A stretch of DNA of 64,000 nucleotides from sequence record MW598459. One strand, given 5' to 3'. Made by a program: the position numbers and the translations under genes. The stretch is from Escherichia phage vB_EcoM_RZ. The notes beneath the pieces are model-generated. The model was given only the letters and a program-made list of their open reading frames with translations, made no database searches and was not told the origin of the DNA. Positions 14,692 to 54,093 of this stretch are shown piece by piece. Position 1 is the stretch's first letter. Each line of letters opens with the position of its first letter.

Positions 14692-14709
14692 GATGAACCT
14701 CGGTTAGTG

Positions 14710-14717
14710 TATAAATA
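14710..14717 (+). promoter_or_regulatory. T4-type late promoter TATAAATA upstream of uvsW
   Basis: Exact TATAAATA about 30 nt upstream of the uvsW ATG at 14746. Confidence 0.5.
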
Positions 14718-14745
14718 TAGATATATTTATTACCTTGGAATCATC

Positions 14746-16245
14746 ATGGATATTAAAATCAACTTTCTAAATTTTAGTCACGTGCATGTTGAATGTGAAG
14801 ATGGAATCTTCTACGAACTCCGTGATTACTTCAGCTTCGAAGCTGAAAACTATCGCTTCAATCCAAAGTTCAAGCAGGGAGTTTGGGACGGACGAATCCG
14901 CCTCCTGGATTACAACCGTAAATTACCATACGGTTTGGTTAATCAAATTAAAAAGTTCGCTGACCAGTTTGGCTATTCATTCTGGATTGACCCACAAATC
15001 ACCGAGAAAGAAGAAATCTCTCGCGAAGAATTCAACAAATGGGTCGAGTCAAAAGAAATCTATTCAGGCAATACCAAGATAACGCCCCATTGGTATCAAT
15101 CTGACGCCGTATATGATGGTCTGGTCAACAGAAGAAAGATTCTGAACTTACCTACGTCTGCAGGTAAAAGCCTCATCCAGGCGCTTCTGGCGCGATATTA
15201 TCTCGAGAACTATGAAGGCAAGGTGCTTATCCTTGTTCCTACAACTGCGCTTGTTGACCAGATGATTAATGACTTTGTTGATTATCGGCTTTTCCCTCGT
15301 GCAGCTTGTCTGGGTATTCGTTCTGGGACTAAACGCGATTCTGATGCGATGATTTATGTATCGACTTATCAGACGGCTGTAAAACAACCTAAAGAATGGT
15401 TTGAACAGTTTGGCCAGTTTATGAATGACGAATGCCACATGGCTACAGGTAAATCGATTTCGACGGTTATCGAAGGCCTTACGAATTGCATGTTTAAATT
15501 TGGTCTGTCAGGTTCACTCCGTGATGGCAAAGCCAACCTTATGCAATATATGGGTCTGTTTGGTGATATCTTTAAACCAGTATCAACATCTAAATTAATG
15601 GAAGATGGCCAGGTTACTGACCTTAAAATAAATAGTATTTTCCTTCGTTACCCTGATGAATTCACCGTTAAAATGAAAGGTAAAACTTATCAGGATGAAA
15701 TCAAGGTAATTACAAAAGCTACACGCAGAAATAAATGGGTAACAAACCTTGCCCTCAAGCTTTCTAAAAAAGATGAAAACGTCTTTTTGATGTTTAAGAA
15801 TATCGAGCACGGTAAATCGATGTTTGAAATGATTAAGGAAGCTGGTCATGAAAAAGTGTATTATGTTTCTGGGGAAGTCGATACCGAAACTCGTAATGCT
15901 CTGAAGGTCATGGCAGAGAATGGAAAGGGAATTATTGTTGTAGCTTCATATGGTGTATTCTCGACGGGGATTTCCGTTAAAAACCTCCATCATATTATTT
16001 TCGCTCACCCAGTCAAGTCAAAGGTAATTGTACTCCAGACAATTGGTCGTGTGCTTCGAAAACATGAATCCAAATCGACCGCAAACGTGTGGGACATTGT
16101 GGATGATATGGGGGTCAAACCCAAATCAGCAAACGCTAAAAAGAAATATGTTCATATTAACTTTGCGCTTAAACATGCACTAGAACGTATTCAGCGGTAT
16201 GCAGACGAAAAATTCAATTATGTAATTAAACAGGTGGAAATATAA
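14746..16245 (+). CDS. uvsW: UvsW DNA/RNA helicase
   Basis: Translation from the ATG at 14746 (MDIKINFLNFSHVHVECEDG...) matches the T4 UvsW N-terminus; helicase motifs present (LNLPTSAGKS Walker A, DECH box); the GTG at 14707 in the ORF track lies inside the promoter. Confidence 0.92.
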   Translation: MDIKINFLNFSHVHVECEDGIFYELRDYFSFEAENYRFNPKFKQGVWDGRIRLLDYNRKLPYGLVNQIKKFADQFGYSFWIDPQITEKEEISREEFNKWVESKEIYSGNTKITPHWYQSDAVYDGLVNRRKILNLPTSAGKSLIQALLARYYLENYEGKVLILVPTTALVDQMINDFVDYRLFPRAACLGIRSGTKRDSDAMIYVSTYQTAVKQPKEWFEQFGQFMNDECHMATGKSISTVIEGLTNCMFKFGLSGSLRDGKANLMQYMGLFGDIFKPVSTSKLMEDGQVTDLKINSIFLRYPDEFTVKMKGKTYQDEIKVITKATRRNKWVTNLALKLSKKDENVFLMFKNIEHGKSMFEMIKEAGHEKVYYVSGEVDTETRNALKVMAENGKGIIVVASYGVFSTGISVKNLHHIIFAHPVKSKVIVLQTIGRVLRKHESKSTANVWDIVDDMGVKPKSANAKKKYVHINFALKHALERIQRYADEKFNYVIKQVEI

Positions 16246-16472
16246 TGAAATCCTTCGAAGAAATTATGTACGAAGCATCAATTGAAGGCTTTATGGCTAA
16301 GATTGGTTCCTGTCAGACCATGGACGGTCTGAAGGAGTTGGAAGGCTATTATAAGAAACGCAGCAAAGAAGCTGAACTGAAAGATTCCGATGATATCAGT
16401 GTTCGCGATGCTCTTGCCGGTAAACGCGCCGAGCTTGAGGATATGGACGACGAAGAAGACGAAGATTTCTAA
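16245..16472 (+). CDS. uvsW.1: UvsW.1 small acidic protein
   Basis: 75 aa; overlaps the uvsW stop (ATAATG); acidic C-terminus (DMDDEEDEDF); T4 has a 76 aa UvsW.1 here. Confidence 0.75.
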   Translation: MKSFEEIMYEASIEGFMAKIGSCQTMDGLKELEGYYKKRSKEAELKDSDDISVRDALAGKRAELEDMDDEEDEDF

Positions 16473-16529
16473 ATAAAAAGGCCCCAACCAAAAGGAAGGG
16501 GCAAAACCAAAAATGGTTAACAACACTAG

Positions 16530-16697
16530 CTAAATTAAAAGTTGGGTCTCGTTCAGTTGCTCTTCTGTATTTTCCGTAACTGGCAAACTCTGAACATAAT
16601 TATAACAGGCGCCCGGATGCACCGGACCTTGGTCTGTATCCACAACCAATGCAGAATCGATTGGAGTTTTACAGACAACACAAATCTTATCTGACAT
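16530..16697 (-). CDS. Small Cys-containing protein (55 aa), uvsY.-2 position; possible zinc ribbon
   Basis: Below the 60 aa ORF-track cutoff; hand-translated MSDKICVVCKTPIDSALVVDTDQGPVHPGACYNYVQSLPVTENTEEQLNETQLLI; strong GAGGAG ribosome-binding site; CxxC...HxxxC spacing. Confidence 0.55.
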   Translation of the reverse strand: MSDKICVVCKTPIDSALVVDTDQGPVHPGACYNYVQSLPVTENTEEQLNETQLLI

Positions 16698-16725
16698 GAT
16701 TGTCTCCTCAGTTAAACTTACATAT

Positions 16726-16836
16726 CTATTTAGTGCTCTTCATAATAGCAGCACGAGCTTTCATCTCATTAACAATTTCGGTTATTCGGTTTGCAGAGAT
16801 AACCATCTCGTCGAGAATCTTACTAATATTTTTCAT
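16726..16836 (-). CDS. Candidate micro-ORF (36 aa) directly after uvsY.-1
   Basis: Hand-translated MKNISKILDEMVISANRITEIVNEMKARAAIMKSTK; the ATG abuts the upstream stop (TAAATG) with AAGGAA ribosome-binding site 8 nt upstream. Confidence 0.3.
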   Translation of the reverse strand: MKNISKILDEMVISANRITEIVNEMKARAAIMKSTK

Positions 16837-17070
16837 TTAATTTTCCTTAAAGTATCTCATACCGGTATCTATTCCCATATTGTGAGAATAGAACGCATCA
16901 TCGATGTATCCTGCAAATTTACCTTTAACATAGATAACATCTTCACCACAAGGGTGGTCAGCGCAGATACGAATATCTGCACGATTCAATTTCCATTCCT
17001 TCATCATATACTTAATTTCTTCTTCGAACTCTTCGTCTTGGTTAAACGCATCGTCGATAGAATATCGCAT
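16837..17070 (-). CDS. Hypothetical protein (77 aa), uvsY.-1 position
   Basis: ORF directly downstream of uvsY with 1 nt start/stop overlap; Cys/His-containing. Confidence 0.55.
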   Translation of the reverse strand: MRYSIDDAFNQDEEFEEEIKYMMKEWKLNRADIRICADHPCGEDVIYVKGKFAGYIDDAFYSHNMGIDTGMRYFKEN

Positions 17071-17504
17071 TACTTGCCCGCCTCAAATTGTCTTATTTCT
17101 AACATATGTTTAAGTGCGAAACTTCGTGACTTAACACCATCTAATGCAGCGCTACAGAAGTCCTGGAGCAGTGTCCAATACTGAATTGACGTATCAATCT
17201 TCAGTACGCTTGAATCTGCGGCCATGACTGTTTTCAATTCTGACTTCTCGTACACATCCATGCATACTTCTTCCCCTGGGTCACCCCTTCCTGTATAATG
17301 GTCTAGTCGTTTTTTCAGTGCAGTTTTCTTCTGAATCTCAAGACGCATTATTTCTTTCTTGCAGTTGGTATACAATCTCAACCATTTGCTATGCAACAAA
17401 ACGTTGTTTTGTGTTTCATATTGAAGTTGTGTACCATCAATTTTTAAATCTGCATCTAACTCATCCTGAAAGACTTCTAACTTATATTCAATCTCTGTTT
17501 TCAT
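17070..17504 (-). CDS. uvsY: UvsY recombination mediator
   Basis: Translation from the ATG at 17504 matches T4 UvsY (…LQYE..NNV.L.SKWL……RGD…DVYEKSE.KTV..AD..VLK.DTS.QYW..L.DFCS.ALD..KSR.FA.KH…FEAGK); the upstream ATG at 17534 sits inside the promoter -10. Confidence 0.85.
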   Translation of the reverse strand: MKTEIEYKLEVFQDELDADLKIDGTQLQYETQNNVLLHSKWLRLYTNCKKEIMRLEIQKKTALKKRLDHYTGRGDPGEEVCMDVYEKSELKTVMAADSSVLKIDTSIQYWTLLQDFCSAALDGVKSRSFALKHMLEIRQFEAGK

Positions 17505-17532
17505 AATGTATCCAATGTAAGGGTCTAGAACC

Positions 17533-17560
17533 ATTATACAGCCATAAAATTAAAGCATTA
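17533..17560 (-). promoter_or_regulatory. Middle promoter with MotA box (TGCTTTA, 12 nt spacer, TATAAT) upstream of uvsY
   Basis: Minus strand reads aaTGCTTTAattttatggctgTATAATgg; T4 uvsY is likewise transcribed from a middle promoter. Confidence 0.6.
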
Positions 17561-17947
17561 ACCGTTTTGACTTAGCTGAATCCTGATTTGTTCGAGGGTA
17601 TCAGGGTCATCAACAATGCTGAACTGAACTGTTACGATAATGGAGTTATCATCATACATAGGGACAACTGCCACCTGTAGATTGCTTATCCTTGGTTCGA
17701 AGTTCCGCACCGCGGAGACGATGTTGCGTTTAATGGTATCTGTGATTAATGGAGTGATATTCTCGAAAAGCTGATTACTTATATCACATCCAAATTCAGG
17801 CATAAAAGGCCTTGACCCTTTTCTTGTGGTGATTATTCCCAAAAGACTGTTCTTAACAGACCTTGCACCAGTTACTTTAGCAACGTCTTTATCCCAACTT
17901 GTAGATAAGTCGGGAGACACATCGCTATACATTTTGTTTATATTCAT
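17558..17947 (-). CDS. 25: Baseplate wedge protein gp25
   Basis: 129 aa; strong match to T4 gp25 (SLLGIITTRKGSRPF.PEFGCD.S.QLFEN.TPL). Confidence 0.9.
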   Translation of the reverse strand: MNINKMYSDVSPDLSTSWDKDVAKVTGARSVKNSLLGIITTRKGSRPFMPEFGCDISNQLFENITPLITDTIKRNIVSAVRNFEPRISNLQVAVVPMYDDNSIIVTVQFSIVDDPDTLEQIRIQLSQNG

Positions 17948-18604
17948 TTACATAAACTTAAAGAATTCTTTAAGCCCCTTAATTACATGGACAGAATGTG
18001 CTCCGCACTCGCAAGAGATAGGAATAGCCATTTGGACCTGTGGCTTGAGAAGTTCTTCTGTTAGTGCATTTATATCATCGAGGGTAATTGCATTGTACAG
18101 GTCCTCGATTTCAGCTTCATTTAAGTCATCAACAACGATGCGCTCACCGCCTTCCGTGATAATATATTCGATACAACAAGCAATCATTTTTCCTTTATCA
18201 CCATCTTCAAACAGTCCAGGATAACGGAATTTAATTTTAAACGCCCCGAAATCACGAATAACTTCAGACTCATCCACGATGCTTGCGCGACTTATAGTCA
18301 CAGGAATATCTTGTTCCTTTCCGCACTCACATACCCATGTATGCTCGACGTTAACAGCTCCGAGACTATTTGCCCAGAGATTAATAAGAAGCAGCTCGGC
18401 TTCCTGTTTGTTTAACCCTTTAGCATCAGTGCATTTATTAAGCAGTTCAATTATTGCAGGTTCCATACGCTTTTCTAATTTTGCCTGAAGCAAATCTTTG
18501 TATTCGCGCAAGGTAAAAGCCCTACAATTTATAGTTTTATTTTTAATTTGGACAATAAATTCATAAGTCATAATTTGCTCCTTTACTGTATTTATAAATA
18601 TCAA
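17948..18604 (-). CDS. 26: Baseplate hub protein gp26
   Basis: 218 aa ORF immediately upstream of gene 25 on the same strand, divergent from gene 51 as in T4. Confidence 0.8.
   Translation of the reverse strand: MIFINTVKEQIMTYEFIVQIKNKTINCRAFTLREYKDLLQAKLEKRMEPAIIELLNKCTDAKGLNKQEAELLLINLWANSLGAVNVEHTWVCECGKEQDIPVTISRASIVDESEVIRDFGAFKIKFRYPGLFEDGDKGKMIACCIEYIITEGGERIVVDDLNEAEIEDLYNAITLDDINALTEELLKPQVQMAIPISCECGAHSVHVIKGLKEFFKFM
18589..18600. promoter_or_regulatory. Palindromic bidirectional late promoter (TATTTATAAATA) between divergent genes 26 and 51
   Basis: The 12-mer is its own reverse complement and contains TATAAATA on both strands (plus 18593-18600, minus 18589-18596). Confidence 0.55.
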
Positions 18605-51950: not shown

Positions 51951-52600
51951 AACTTACACCCTTTAACAGTCTCGATGAACAATTTACGGGCTTCAAGAGA
52001 ATCGATATTTAAGATTTTCTTATAAGCATTTAGTTTAGTTGAATACTTTTCCCAAACCAAGTCGTTAGTCTGTTCATCATGTTGGTCTATTATACCTAAA
52101 AATGAATCAAGCAAACAAAACGTTTCAAATGAAATAACATTCGATTGGAGAAGTTTGAAAATATAACTTGTATTCACTTTAGTATTATACTCGAAAATCT
52201 CTTGGAGCGATTTGACTTCGACTTTCTTACTGAAGTAATAGATGTTCTTTATATCATCTTCGTATACTTGTCTAATTCTTTTAAGTCGGCCAATGTATTC
52301 TCTATAAAATATCAGAGCATCGGCATCACTTATATCGCCTATCCATGCATCCTGGTTCGCAACCAGGTTTGACATGAATATTAACGTTAATTCTTTAAGA
52401 GTGTACTTATCGCTAAGCTTTTCGAAAAAATACTTATCGCGACGTTTTTGATAAGCACTATCGGAGATTCGCATGGTCCAGTTATATTTGATAATATCAT
52501 AACGACCCGAAAAATGCTGTTTGATGGATAAGTACAGTTGGTATACTGATTTACCATTTATATATCGGTTGTTATTTGGAGGCATGCGAATCGTAATCAT
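51947..52600 (-). CDS. 59: Helicase loader gp59
   Basis: 217 aa, same length as T4 gp59; near-identical (DGKSVY.LYL.IKQH..G.YD.IKYNW.MR.SD.AYQKRRDKYFF.KLS.KY.LKEL.LIF.SNLVANQDAWIGDISDADAL.FYREYIGRLK). Confidence 0.93.
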   Translation of the reverse strand: MITIRMPPNNNRYINGKSVYQLYLSIKQHFSGRYDIIKYNWTMRISDSAYQKRRDKYFFEKLSDKYTLKELTLIFMSNLVANQDAWIGDISDADALIFYREYIGRLKRIRQVYEDDIKNIYYFSKKVEVKSLQEIFEYNTKVNTSYIFKLLQSNVISFETFCLLDSFLGIIDQHDEQTNDLVWEKYSTKLNAYKKILNIDSLEARKLFIETVKGCKF

Positions 52601-52917
52601 AACAAAAAGTCCAGCGTATTAGTTTTCTGTGTACGAGACATACTCGGGCGAAGCAAGTTATCATCATATGCTTCATTCATAATCTTATCGACGATTCCCG
52701 CAGGGATATATCGCGCAAAATTACCTTCAGGAATTCCACGTTCTTCCAACCAGGCAGTCGCAGCTTCCAGATAAGACATTTCAGTTGTCTCGACCATGGC
52801 TTCAATATCAAGCCCGTTTTGCTGCTTACTAATCGCCCCGGAAGGCGATTCAGTTTTCTGTGTATCAAAATTAACTAAAGAGGACATCATAGAGCTCCAC
52901 AGCTTCGGTTTTTTCAT
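52597..52917 (-). CDS. 33: Late transcription accessory protein gp33
   Basis: C-terminus ...RYIP.G...KI.NEAY.DNL.RP......K...LDFL matches remembered T4 gp33; start is ambiguous (ATG at 52917 gives 106 aa; ATG at 52890 with GGAG ribosome-binding site gives 97 aa). Confidence 0.7.
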   Translation of the reverse strand: MKKPKLWSSMMSSLVNFDTQKTESPSGAISKQQNGLDIEAMVETTEMSYLEAATAWLEERGIPEGNFARYIPAGIVDKIMNEAYDDNLLRPSMSRTQKTNTLDFLL

Positions 52918-53140
52918 CTTCAAAACGCTCACGAGTGCCTTTATGATACAGGCCGAGCTGTGTATTGAACATCTTACCGTCAACGCCTAATTCGGTTTTT
53001 GCCTTGTCTTTAAGGTCTTTAATTTCGTCTGCATATGCTTCCATTTTTAATTTGGTATCGGAAGCAGCTTTAATCAGCTTGGCTAGTTCAGCACCATGAG
53101 TATCAGGACAAAATTCAACTTTCACTTTTTTCTCTTTCAT
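52871..53140 (-). CDS. dsbA: dsDNA-binding late transcription enhancer DsbA
   Basis: 89 aa, same length as T4 DsbA; position between rnh and gene 33. Confidence 0.75.
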   Translation of the reverse strand: MKEKKVKVEFCPDTHGAELAKLIKAASDTKLKMEAYADEIKDLKDKAKTELGVDGKMFNTQLGLYHKGTRERFEDEKTEAVELYDVLFS

Positions 53141-53148
53141 AATATACC

Positions 53149-54093
53149 TTAATAAAATTCAGCAATATTTGCAGTTAGTTTAGACAGACCAGACTTAACA
53201 AAGTAAGGATAAACTTTACTTTTGGCTGGGATAACGTAGTTATTATATCGTTCTAATATTGAAGCGGATATTTCCGTTGGGATAAAGTCCATATCAATCA
53301 ACAATTGGTTTTCACAGAATCTATTATATTGCTCTTCTGTTAAAAGCGTTTTCAAAACGTCATGGTCGTAATAGTTGAGTGCAATTTGTTCAAGCTCAGC
53401 TGCACGGGTTGGCGGAGTACGTTCACCTTCTTCATGAGTGTAATAAAAATCACCACGAACCTTGATGCTCGACACGTTATCTTTTTTGTCGCCTTTAACA
53501 ACCTTTGTCACGCAATCCATAAGGGCATCGCCTGATTTAGTTTTGACATATTTTTTCTGCATCGGGGACCATTGTTTCACCCCAGGGAATTTATGCAACT
53601 GGGTAAAGTCACCATCCGAAGAAACAACCATAACCGGATGTCCGAGACTGGTGAGCAACTTCGTTAATACTGCAATATGGTCGTCTGCCTCGACTTTATC
53701 AATATTCATCACGATGTAAGGCATGTATTTTTCCATTTCATCGATGATGATGTGCATGGCAGCATGTAGACCTTCCCAATCGAATTGAGACTCTTCACGA
53801 GCCTTTGCACGGTTTTTCTTATAATAATAAGATTTAGTCCGGCGCCAATAGCCATTCTTCGAGTTATCAACACAAATAATTGGAATTGTATAACCAAGCT
53901 TTTTGAACTGTACGATATTTTTTCGGATAGAGTTCAGAACCAAGTGTCTGGTCATTGCAGTTGTTACTTTCGGAAAGCCTGCGTCTTTGCCGAATTCCTG
54001 AAAGGCTGCAGCCATGATGAGCTGACTAAAATCGAGTAACTGAAAACCTTCTTTTTGACGGTCTTCTTCAGGGAGTAAAAAATCTAAATTCAT
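53149..54093 (-). CDS. rnh: RNase H (5'-3' exonuclease / flap endonuclease)
   Basis: 314 aa (T4 RNase H is 305 aa); strong match (GYW.RR...YYYKKNR.KAREES..DWEG...MPYIVM.IDK.EADDHIAVL...SSDGDFTQLHK.P.VKQWSPM.KK). Confidence 0.92.
   Translation of the reverse strand: MNLDFLLPEEDRQKEGFQLLDFSQLIMAAAFQEFGKDAGFPKVTTAMTRHLVLNSIRKNIVQFKKLGYTIPIICVDNSKNGYWRRTKSYYYKKNRAKAREESQFDWEGLHAAMHIIIDEMEKYMPYIVMNIDKVEADDHIAVLTKLLTSLGHPVMVVSSDGDFTQLHKFPGVKQWSPMQKKYVKTKSGDALMDCVTKVVKGDKKDNVSSIKVRGDFYYTHEEGERTPPTRAAELEQIALNYYDHDVLKTLLTEEQYNRFCENQLLIDMDFIPTEISASILERYNNYVIPAKSKVYPYFVKSGLSKLTANIAEFY

Follow-up and report, generated by a model that had tools for sequence, protein, structure and literature searches.

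Two small open reading frames between uvsW.1 and uvsY.-1 of a T4-like coliphage are genuine phage genes, one of them uvsY.-2

In phage T4, uvsY.-1 lies 26 bases upstream of uvsY.-2, with a perfect TATAAATA late-promoter box there. The product of uvsY.-2 belongs to DUF2685, one of the small-protein families with the widest conservation in T4-like phages, and the fitness cost of its knock-down in T4 is measurable. Knock-down of T4 uvsY.-2 was classed as "Semi-Fit" and gave smaller plaques, and the main text of that study reports complementation (PMC11879866). The CRISPRi-ART effect was weak (pooled score of 1.12, KS p = 0.12), and the plaque-assay titer was about half that of the negative control (PMC11879866). 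In the same screen, uvsY, uvsY.-1, and uvsW were classed as "Not Fit", such that a fitness cost was seen with uvsY.-2 and none with uvsY or uvsW (PMC11879866).

The window analyzed here is a stretch of 64,000 nucleotides from Escherichia phage vB_EcoM_RZ, a Gaprivervirus and T4-like coliphage with 99.9% identity to phage DK-13 and 98% identity to phage SP18. The initial annotation had placed two small open reading frames (ORFs), of 55 and 36 amino acids (aa), between uvsW.1 and uvsY.-1, and a check of the coordinates confirmed their location. The features of the locus, in window positions, are the following.

16245..16472, plus strand: uvsW.1, the convergent neighbor (Pfam PF11637 at E 7e-25)
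16471..16502, minus strand: terminator-like hairpin (GCCCC...GGGGC), then CUUUUUAUUU, 28 bases past the uvsY.-2 stop (from the RNA fold)
16530..16697, minus strand: uvsY.-2 orthologue (DUF2685), 55 aa (Pfam PF10886, phrog_1043, and identity to T4)
16704..16709, minus strand: Shine-Dalgarno sequence GAGGAG of uvsY.-2, six bases 5′ of the ATG (read off the sequence)
16726..16836, minus strand: 36-aa gene, predicted single heptad-repeat alpha-helix (pN/pS, AlphaFold2, and DK-13 annotation QMV33820.1)
16837..17070, minus strand: uvsY.-1 homologue, 77 aa (phrog_1541 at E 7e-41; named uvsY.-1 in SP18)
16844..16848, minus strand: Shine-Dalgarno-like AAGGA of the 36-aa gene, within the last uvsY.-1 codons and seven bases before the ATG
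17070..17534, minus strand: uvsY, recombination mediator and first gene of the unit (phrog_231 at E 1.9e-46; annotations in relatives)

The genes on the minus strand are tightly packed. The TAA of uvsY overlaps the ATG of uvsY.-1 (TAATG), and no base separates the TAA of the 77-aa uvsY.-1 homologue from the ATG of the 36-aa ORF, as had been described. The true start of uvsY may be an internal ATG at 17504, and one metagenomic copy of uvsY.-1 bears the label PF26882 Phage_T4_Y11B. Downstream of uvsY.-2, RNA folding of positions 16470-16535 of the minus strand gave −19.3 kcal/mol (z = −3.65), and 0 of 200 shuffled sequences folded as well; the predicted hairpin is terminator-like and would close the uvsY unit between the convergent genes. 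A consensus promoter and terminator scan of positions 16200-17700 returned counts at or below shuffle expectation and missed the hairpin, probably because the loop region inside the outer G+C pairs (12 bases in the fold) exceeds the 3- to 8-base limit of the scan. We conclude that uvsY, uvsY.-1, the 36-aa gene, and uvsY.-2 very probably form a four-gene minus-strand unit, the last two genes of which are a uvsY.-2 orthologue and a coding frame under purifying selection, and which is closed by the hairpin and U-run opposite the convergent uvsW and uvsW.1. Neither ORF is new, as both are annotated coding sequences in phage DK-13.

The initial annotation had suggested that the 55-aa ORF be compared with T4 uvsY.-2, and the ORF proved to be uvsY.-2 itself. 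The ORF (16530-16697, minus strand; MSDKICVVCKTPIDSALVVDTDQGPVHPGACYNYVQSLPVTENTEEQLNETQLLI) encodes a product of 6.0 kDa with a pI of 4.1, in which a predicted CCHC zinc finger precedes a conserved C-terminal tail. Residues 3-54 matched positions 1-54 of the 55-position Pfam profile PF10886 (DUF2685) at 101.7 bits (E 2.4e-29), where the gathering cut-off is 25 bits, and the ORF matched positions 1-55 of 55 of phrog_1043 at E 2.6e-29. Because of these two matches, the 55-aa ORF is considered real beyond chance. The protein is 82% identical to T4 UvsY.-2 (NP_049797), with which it shares a length of 55 aa, the C-x2-C ... H-x3-C ligands, and the EEQLNETQLL tail. Both genes also have the ribosome-binding site GAGGAGACAATCATG and come last after uvsY, where they face uvsW. 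Moreover, the strong GAGGAG ribosome-binding site that had been noted is present at 16704-16709, and the sequence AGGAGACAATCATG at the Shine-Dalgarno position was invariant across 7 of 7 aligned phages and was found in T4 too. The difference from T4 lies in the neighbors only: here an additional 36-aa gene sits in between, and the late-promoter box is degenerate.

DUF2685 was matched in 1,188 phage records, and its gene almost always ends the uvsY unit and is convergent with uvsW.1/uvsW. The family formed 76 representative clusters among 1.84 billion proteins, nearly all with lengths of 51 to 60 aa. Three longer matches (P0028-P0030) look like frame-shift or chimera artifacts, and two further matches (P0072 and P0073) were rejected as repetitive false positives. 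Apparent upstream extensions found by tblastn were rejected too, as the one in Ec_O157kw runs through stop codons and the frame in Muldoon is an unrelated 80-aa ORF. The order 25-uvsY-DUF2685, convergent with uvsW.1-uvsW, was found in Tequatrovirus, Jiaodavirus, Krischvirus, Tulanevirus, and Biquartavirus, and the position as last gene after uvsY, facing uvsW.1/uvsW, was found in the window and in phages T4, JEC, G2248, 60AhydR15PP, avDM10, and Pm5461. An exception is Acinetobacter phage Melin, in which DUF2685 comes after gene 25 and neither uvsY nor uvsW.1 is annotated beside it.

The Cys/His pattern CxxC...HxxxC, which had been called zinc-ribbon-like, is present in the 55-aa ORF as C6-x2-C9 ... 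H27-x3-C31. Across 61 diverse members of DUF2685, residues C6, C9, C31, and E42 were invariant, and K10, V26, H27, G29, L53, and L54 were conserved in at least 90%; UvsY.-2 of the window carries all of the conserved ligands and the L53/L54 of the tail. Judged by this alignment, the pattern is a conserved set of candidate metal ligands. An AlphaFold2 model (mean pLDDT of 76) had residues 1-40 folded and the tail disordered at a pLDDT of about 50. In the model, C6 and C9 lie on a knuckle, H27 lies after the second hairpin strand (residues 24-26), and C31 is at the start of a helix (residues 30-37), such that residues 1-40 are predicted to form a treble-clef-like zinc finger. We infer zinc binding from the conservation of the ligands and a model of moderate confidence.

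The class of finger was considered by comparison with known folds. A zinc ribbon has two beta-hairpin knuckles with two ligands each, and in the model only C6/C9 are on a knuckle (pLDDT of 76). A LIM domain has two tandem sites with eight ligands in about 55 residues, and UvsY.-2 has four candidates, three Cys and one His, for one metal site rather than two. The first zinc site of LIM domains is spaced C-x2-C-x16-23-H-x2-C, to which the C-x2-C-x17-H-x3-C of UvsY.-2 is close. Treble-clef fingers such as the first LIM half, the GATA finger, and the C-terminal finger of Vps39 share with the model a CxxC knuckle, a beta-hairpin, and a His/Cys pair at the start of a helix. Consistent with a finger, the top Foldseek matches in the PDB were all zinc fingers (LIM halves, GATA, and RING) with alignments of 26-33 columns, the span of one finger, at non-significant E values of 0.22 or higher. 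A search of PDB sequences with the UvsY.-2 profile matched the Vps39 zinc finger (PDB 6ZE9) at E 0.0027. Only uncharacterized members of its own family were returned by a BFVD fold search, and NCBIfam and PADLOC searches gave no match for either ORF. Likeness to eukaryotic treble-clef fingers implies no homology and says nothing about the function of UvsY.-2. The label of a zinc-ribbon-like pattern is thus approximately right: the four ligands are conserved, but the predicted fold is nearer to a treble clef or half-LIM than to a two-knuckle ribbon.

After the metal ligands, the best conserved part of DUF2685 is its C-terminal tail, an acidic and hydrophobic, near-invariant peptide, LxE[TV][QE]LL, that is preceded by a poorly conserved linker and ends 0-2 residues from the C terminus in nearly all members shown. 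One way in which such a protein could act is as a zinc-stabilized mini-adaptor, with the finger as a rigid binding surface and the C-terminal peptide fitting into a pocket on a partner. Because the T4-like phages of Escherichia, Klebsiella, Acinetobacter, Aeromonas, and Vibrio would all need to find this partner, a core protein of phage DNA metabolism or a universal host protein would be a better candidate than a strain-specific defense factor. A CCHC finger combined with a disordered, near-invariant, putative docking peptide suggests concrete mutants, namely, ligand substitutions and a tail deletion.

One candidate for the partner is the gp45 sliding clamp, with UvsY.-2 as a further client that carries a divergent clamp-binding motif on a flexible linker, as in gp43, gp33, and gp55. 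UvsY.-2 resembles those proteins in having a short acidic and hydrophobic peptide at the extreme C terminus of a variable disordered linker, and its tail is C-terminal, highly conserved, and disordered in the model. The T4 clamp-binding motif is (S/T)LDFL(F/Y/L), seen in T4 gp43 (ending in ASLDFLFG) and gp55 (ending in PSLDFLYEAND) and, in this phage, in gp33 (ending in NTLDFLL) and RNase H (beginning with MNLDFLL). The tail of UvsY.-2, LNETQLLI, does not match this motif, as it ends in NETQLLI without the Asp-Phe core or an aromatic residue, and we consider a clamp-client role very unlikely. A broader version of the adaptor idea is that the tail might plug into a replication/recombination hub (the gp45 clamp or a protein that partners the acidic tail of gp32) and so tune recombination-dependent replication, in which case the 36-aa protein and an N-terminal extension found in Bragavirus (see below) could be exchangeable partner subunits; this proposal is quite unlikely.

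The 36-aa ORF (16726-16836, minus strand; MKNISKILDEMVISANRITEIVNEMKARAAIMKSTK) was examined for evidence of coding. When six frames were compared across eight DNA versions, the summed pN/pS was lowest in the 36-aa frame at 0.147, followed by the mirror antisense frame at 0.278 and the remaining frames at 0.94-1.81; the family is small and shallow (80-100% amino-acid identity), such that the selection test rests on few independent substitutions. Pairwise dN/dS ranged from 0.02 to 0.25, and 20 of 33 variable sites fell at third codon positions (P = 0.0012). Moreover, 14 of 30 codon columns varied in DNA only, and synonymous-only columns numbered 14 in the sense frame compared with 0-2 in shifted sense frames and 1-10 in antisense frames. 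The start, stop, and Shine-Dalgarno sequence of the gene are kept both after uvsY.-1 (the window and VR26) and directly after uvsY (VR20, LH2, and Dhakavirus). In 4 of 4 upstream contexts read as DNA, the Shine-Dalgarno sequence is 6-10 bases 5′ of the ATG; VR20, LH2, and the Dhakavirus phages have GAGG motifs at this spacing. Two metagenomic contigs have the gene abutting or overlapping its upstream neighbor, and two metagenomic variants read through the TAG for six more codons.

An alternative is that the 36-aa ORF is untranslated. The stretch would then be a noncoding spacer or cis-element, for instance a structured RNA or what is left of a late promoter for uvsY.-2, or its open frame would be a by-product of an ORF on the plus strand (16696-17184 or 16700-16840). 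The ORF is very short and is unannotated in SP18, VR20, VR26, VR5, and ECML-359. Its last codons overlap the position of the perfect T4 TATAAATA box upstream of uvsY.-2, but the window has ACTAAATA, with 6 of 8 matches to the box, and no exact TATAAATA near; none was found on the minus strand from 16500 to 18588. An RNA structure is disfavored by the lack of a significant Rfam match, as a search at a permissive threshold returned only GA-cis below threshold (E 0.82). Two antisense frames are open across the ORF, one with a pN/pS of 0.28, but the length of the plus-strand ORFs depends on context (162 aa here and 85 aa in VR20), and these ORFs are antisense to the established uvsY.-1 and uvsY. 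Finally, an untranslated ORF is at odds with a sense frame that has both the lowest pN/pS and the 14 synonymous-only codon columns and with an ATG, a stop, and a well-spaced Shine-Dalgarno sequence that are kept in four contexts. We regard this alternative as highly improbable.

Because the 36-aa ORF is conserved with a coding pattern of substitution, it is considered more than a chance frame. We conclude from the substitution pattern that it is a protein-coding gene under purifying selection and that both small ORFs, the 55-aa one by its Pfam and PHROG matches, are genuine phage genes. The initial annotation was correct in this respect, and the result is largely ordinary, uvsY.-2 being already catalogued in T4.

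The 36-aa protein is small (4.1 kDa) and basic (pI 9.8), and AlphaFold2 predicts a single helix over residues 2-35 (pLDDT of 93) with a heptad of I4/M11/I18/M25/M32 together with L8/A15/V22/A29. No match to Pfam, NCBIfam, or PADLOC was found for it at E values up to 1, and the best PHROG had an E of 0.078. With a query padded by four X residues, protein searches found seven clusters in a collection of 5.8 billion proteins. The frames are not interrupted in close relatives: each of the 35 phage records with a coverage of 80% or more has them intact, and the 36-aa ORF is kept in each of its four upstream contexts. Equivalents of DK-13 QMV33820.1 occur in UPEC01/07, P479, MN01, LH2 (WJJ57228.1), ABTNLsp5 (QPI13303.1), and CLB_P2 (UNI73274.1) as the same gene of 36-38 aa with 80-100% identity, always between uvsY or uvsY.-1 and uvsY.-2, and the records call it hypothetical, with no name, family, or function. 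The gene is lineage restricted and patchy over three genera, including a single Tequatrovirus (LH2), and is absent in T4 and many relatives.

The site between uvsY and uvsY.-2 is a hypervariable slot. Depending on lineage, the slot holds uvsY.-1, the 36-aa gene, an unrelated 34-aa ORF (VR7 type), a 232-aa GIY-YIG-like (homing-endonuclease-like) ORF, or nothing, and the flanking DNA is conserved whereas the insert differs. The junction is thus a clear small example of a recombination-prone slot with micro-gene swapping in T4-like phages. In Bragavirus, Proteus phage Pm5461 has a long form of DUF2685 (YP_009195603.1, 126 aa, phrog_26998), which likewise follows uvsY and faces uvsW.1 and the C-terminal 54 residues of which are DUF2685. 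It differs in that a helical N-terminal extension of 72 residues, fused in frame, takes the place of the separate upstream small gene, and this fusion is a hint that slot products could act jointly with UvsY.-2. BLASTP found no similarity among the 36-aa protein, the VR7-type 34-aa ORF, and the Bragavirus extension, and one divergent family for all slot products was rejected at that sensitivity. A shared function of the slot products is a conjecture, since there is no sequence similarity among them. Because the slot content is freely swapped between relatives, the 36-aa gene looks more like an accessory gene than like a core regulator, and its helix could be an accessory binder or modulator that would act via a coiled-coil-type contact. 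We tentatively propose, as a mechanism that may well be wrong, that UvsY.-2 is a mini-adaptor and the 36-aa protein an accessory binder or modulator.

Alternatively, the 36-aa helix, like other slot occupants, could be an exchanged accessory peptide for host interaction or counter-defense that is functionally unrelated to uvsY and uvsY.-2. Many phage inhibitor peptides are small, basic, and helical, and by analogy the 36-aa product resembles them. Cargo that differs between close relatives, a patchy distribution across three genera, and a differing insert between conserved flanks are all consistent with such a role. Nonetheless, PADLOC, Pfam, NCBIfam, and PHROGs gave no match for the protein, and a sequence that is 80-100% conserved across genera varies less than fast coevolution should produce, although the latter is a weak argument. 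We consider this alternative unlikely.

The initial annotation had suggested that the two ORFs are small regulators, given their location among recombination and repair genes, and the sole argument for a regulatory role would be the synteny of DUF2685 with uvsY/uvsW across several genera. Both proteins could serve the UvsX/UvsY/UvsW recombination and repair pathway specifically, as regulators or as accessory factors; for example, UvsY.-2 could modulate UvsY or gp32 on single-stranded DNA, with an acidic tail imitating the gp32 C terminus. The two genes share a unit with uvsY in which stop and start codons abut or overlap, and uvsY-DUF2685 stands opposite uvsW.1-uvsW in at least seven genera at 40-85% protein identity, but DUF2685 of Melin is found without annotated uvsY or uvsW.1 alongside. 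UvsY.-2, with its tail EEQLNETQLLI, has in common with gp32 of this phage an acidic tail and a Leu-rich patch at its end, but the resemblance is loose and the Leu spacing differs. Moreover, "Semi-Fit" for T4 uvsY.-2 against "Not Fit" for uvsY, uvsY.-1, and uvsW would be unexpected if UvsY.-2 acts only in that pathway, and the 36-aa gene is missing from T4 and many relatives that recombine normally. A dedicated role of both proteins in recombination is therefore doubtful.

For annotation, the gain is a normal uvsY.-2 and a real 36-aa gene that is omitted from the SP18, VR20, VR26, VR5, and ECML-359 records. At 55 and 36 aa, both ORFs are shorter than the 60-aa default of an ORF list.

Over the 1.4 kb around the two small ORFs, identity is 99.9% with Escherichia phage DK-13 and 98-99% with further Gaprivervirus phages (Straboviridae, T4-like), among them SP18 and TH41. 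The genes of the locus are listed below, the last four in transcription order.

14707-16245, plus strand: uvsW
16245-16472, plus strand: uvsW.1
17534-17070, minus strand: uvsY, transcribed first
17070-16837, minus strand: uvsY.-1 homologue, second
16836-16726, minus strand: 36-aa ORF, third
16697-16530, minus strand: 55-aa ORF, fourth

The uvsY stop and the uvsY.-1 start overlap (TAATG), the ATG of the 36-aa ORF lies directly 3′ of the uvsY.-1 TAA, and a 28-base spacer carrying GAGGAG separates the 36-aa ORF from the 55-aa ORF. A GCCCC...GGGGC hairpin (fold of -19.3 kcal/mol, z = -3.65) followed by CUUUUUAUUU is located 28 bases past the 55-aa ORF stop. The initial annotation had reported the coordinates and lengths of both ORFs, the TAA-ATG junction, and a GAGGAG ribosome-binding site and CxxC...HxxxC pattern for the 55-aa ORF, all of which agree with the window sequence; GAGGAG lies six bases before the 55-aa ORF ATG, and the Cys/His pattern is C6-x2-C9 and H27-x3-C31. 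Because of the gene order, the stop/start junctions, the spacer and the terminal hairpin, the four genes seem to form a single unit, ending where the 55-aa ORF and uvsW.1 converge.

By homology, the 55-aa ORF is uvsY.-2, a gene family already known and catalogued. The ORF gave an end-to-end match to Pfam PF10886 (DUF2685; 101.7 bits, the cut-off being 25 bits; E 2.4e-29), also matched phrog_1043, and is 82% identical to T4 UvsY.-2 (NP_049797); relatives carry it annotated as uvsY.-2 or uvsY.2. It was found by tblastn in 1,188 records of phages whose hosts include Escherichia, Klebsiella, Acinetobacter, Aeromonas and Yersinia, and its profile, searched against 1.84 billion representative proteins, returned 76 clusters, almost all of 51-60 aa. 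The order gene 25-uvsY-DUF2685, opposite uvsW.1-uvsW, recurs in Tequatrovirus, Jiaodavirus, Krischvirus, Tulanevirus, Biquartavirus and Bragavirus, and Acinetobacter phage Melin is an exception to it. Across 61 aligned members (30-70% identity), C6, C9, C31 and E42 are invariant, and conservation of K10, V26, H27, G29, L53 and L54 is 90% or higher. Moreover, a tail, LxE[TV][QE]LL, sits 0-2 residues from the C terminus in nearly all members shown.

AlphaFold2 (18 sequences, mean pLDDT 76) predicted that UvsY.-2 residues 1-40 are folded, with a CxxC knuckle, then a hairpin (residues 19-26) and a helix (residues 30-37) that has C31 at its start and H27 immediately before it, and that residues 41-55 are disordered (pLDDT about 50). 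Foldseek against the PDB returned zinc fingers only (LIM halves, GATA, RING and ribosomal fingers), none significant (best E 0.22), a BFVD fold search returned only uncharacterized family members, and the UvsY.-2 profile matched the Vps39 C-terminal zinc finger among PDB sequences at E 0.0027. The pattern had been described as zinc-ribbon-like, which is right in spirit, since a putative four-ligand metal site is conserved; the topology predicted here is that of a treble clef and not of a ribbon.

In a CRISPRi-ART screen of T4 (PMC11879866), uvsY.-2 was classed "Semi-Fit" (pooled score of 1.12, three guides at 2.1-2.3), and in the plaque assay its knock-down gave smaller plaques and about half the negative-control titer. 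According to the main text of that study, the defect was complemented and the gene is "important for T4 infection"; uvsY.-1, uvsY and uvsW were "Not Fit" in the same screen. This pattern argues against the idea, raised in the initial annotation and favored by synteny, that both small proteins are recombination regulators. We infer from its build that UvsY.-2 could be a mini-adaptor, in which a metal-stabilized finger and a variable linker would present a docking peptide at the free C terminus. Because the tail hardly varies from coliphages through Aeromonas and Vibrio phages, its partner should be either a phage core protein or a host protein that is universal.

One candidate for the tail was a gp45 clamp-binding peptide, with whose published description the general architecture of UvsY.-2 agrees. 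UvsY.-2 ends in NETQLLI and so lacks the clamp-binding motif, whereas T4 gp43 and gp55 end in ASLDFLFG and PSLDFLYEAND and, in the window phage, gp33 ends in NTLDFLL and RNase H starts with MNLDFLL. The clamp-binding-type peptide is thus C-terminal in gp33 (52597-52983, minus strand) and N-terminal in RNase H (53149-54093, minus strand). The gp32 tail of the window phage (GLDDLLAGL) bears only a loose likeness to that of UvsY.-2.

The 36-aa ORF, already predicted in some GenBank records, is on comparative evidence a real, lineage-restricted micro-gene. It was intact in 35 phage records by tblastn (Gaprivervirus, some Dhakavirus and one Tequatrovirus, LH2), and a search of 5.8 billion proteins gave seven clusters of 36-42 aa. 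DK-13, UPEC01/07, P479, MN01, LH2, ABTNLsp5 and CLB_P2 annotate it as a hypothetical protein, and SP18, VR20, VR26, VR5 and ECML-359 omit it. Among eight distinct DNA versions, two of them from metagenomic contigs, pairwise dN/dS was 0.02-0.25 in its own frame, variation was synonymous only in 14 of 30 codon columns, and third positions made up 20 of the 33 variable sites (P = 0.0012); the window and LH2 differ by 15 synonymous and 5 non-synonymous changes. Summed pN/pS came to 0.147 for the sense frame and 0.278 for its mirror antisense frame, as expected of an echo, and ranged from 0.94 to 1.81 for the remaining four. Whether the ORF follows uvsY.-1 (window, VR26) or uvsY directly (VR20, with a four-base overlap; LH2, with its own GAGG; Dhakavirus phages), it retains its ATG, its stop and a Shine-Dalgarno sequence 6-10 bases ahead of the start. 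The plus-strand ORFs that cross this stretch vary in length with context and are antisense to established genes, and Rfam gave no significant family match there. Two metagenomic variants (P0020 and P0021) have a Gln codon in place of TAG and six extra residues (QICKFN or QICKIN), and therefore the C-terminal end tolerates extension.

The 36-aa protein is basic (pI 9.8) and was predicted to form a single helix from residue 2 to 35 (pLDDT 93) with a clean heptad (I4, M11, I18, M25 and M32, plus L8, A15, V22 and A29). No family was matched in Pfam, NCBIfam or PADLOC, and the best PHROGs match reached only E 0.08. The most plausible reading of the helix is an accessory binder of coiled-coil type, which might work with UvsY.-2, as a gene fusion in Bragavirus hints, or on a host target.

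From the end of uvsY to the uvsY.-2 ribosome-binding site, the cargo differs among phages.

Content of the slot between uvsY and uvsY.-2
T4: uvsY.-1 only
Window and VR26: uvsY.-1 plus the 36-aa gene
VR20, LH2, Dhakavirus ABTNLsp5 and CLB_P2: 36-aa gene only
VR7, VR25, TH15 and, more distantly, Enterobacter and Kosakonia phages: unrelated 34-aa ORF
IME08: unannotated 232-aa ORF resembling, by eye, a GIY-YIG homing endonuclease
Klebsiella phage JEC: nothing (30 bases)

Although the insert changes, its flanks are conserved (...GAGGCAGGTAAAT... and ...AAATAGATAT...GAGGAGACAATCATG). The slot of Bragavirus (Proteus phages Pm5461 and PM2, Shigella phage SdyM_006) holds a 72-residue helical extension that is continuous with DUF2685 in a single 123-126-aa CDS, an in-frame fusion, and phrog_26998 is a family of this long form. 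Pairwise BLASTP among the three kinds of helical slot product detected no similarity. The 36-aa gene is dispensable in many relatives, which further weighs against a recombination regulator. We conclude that the initial observation is confirmed and its interpretation partly supported. A T4 specialist would meet no surprise in either ORF; the gain lies in a corrected annotation, a concrete hypothesis on the structure of DUF2685 and the description of a gene-swapping slot.

The natural fusion (Pm5461, locus L021, 601-981; SdyM_006, locus L022, 601-972) sits where other phages have separate micro-genes, with DUF2685 as its C-terminal third and 72 N-terminal residues that are helix-like by eye. 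The unannotated 34-aa ORF, MMGCRKANIRKPLKPSEEKMREFQQFINAALKKH (pI 10.3; VR7, locus L003, 818-922, minus strand; also VR25 and TH15), stands in for both uvsY.-1 and the 36-aa gene, and the VR7-type ORF has a four-base overlap with the uvsY stop. Copies at 60-63% identity follow uvsY as hypothetical proteins in Enterobacter phages CIP9, Entb_45 and IME523 and Kosakonia phage 305. The 232-aa ORF of IME08, a Dhakavirus (locus L010, 174-872), is absent from the RefSeq annotation and has ..YVGSGNY.., many basic repeats and, by eye, a GIY-YIG/Seg-type look. In alignment, the last ~25 bases of the window uvsY.-1 (16840-16866), ATGAGATACTTTAAGGAAAATTAA, resemble the Dhakavirus uvsY end (loci L008 and L009, 660-700), ATGAGACAATTTGAGGCAGGTAAA, which gives the impression that the 36-aa gene moved together with part of its upstream junction.

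A perfect late-promoter box, TATAAATA, overlaps the uvsY.-1 stop in T4 (locus L005, about 2165-2195), ~20 bases ahead of the uvsY.-2 ribosome-binding site. In LH2 and Dhakavirus phages, the final codons of the 36-aa gene form AATAAATA at this position, and the window has ACTAAATA (16712-16735; 6/8 matches). Separate late expression of uvsY.-2 may, to judge from the boxes, differ among T4, LH2, Dhakavirus and the window phage.

The mechanically called uvsW ORF starts with GTG at 14707, yet TATAAATA occurs inside it at 14710-14717 (plus strand); the real start is probably the ATG at about 14746, giving MDIKINF... In the window, uvsW continues straight into uvsW.1 (16225-16245). In DK-13 (locus L001, 1-326), SP18 (locus L002, 1-326), P479 and UPEC01, similarity to the window begins only ~20 bases before uvsW.1, which is preceded by a different gene; SP18 annotates this gene as a homing endonuclease and DK-13 as a hypothetical protein, and the UPEC01 match lists a "group I intron endonuclease". 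The difference suggests a mobile-endonuclease insertion polymorphism at the uvsW/uvsW.1 junction.
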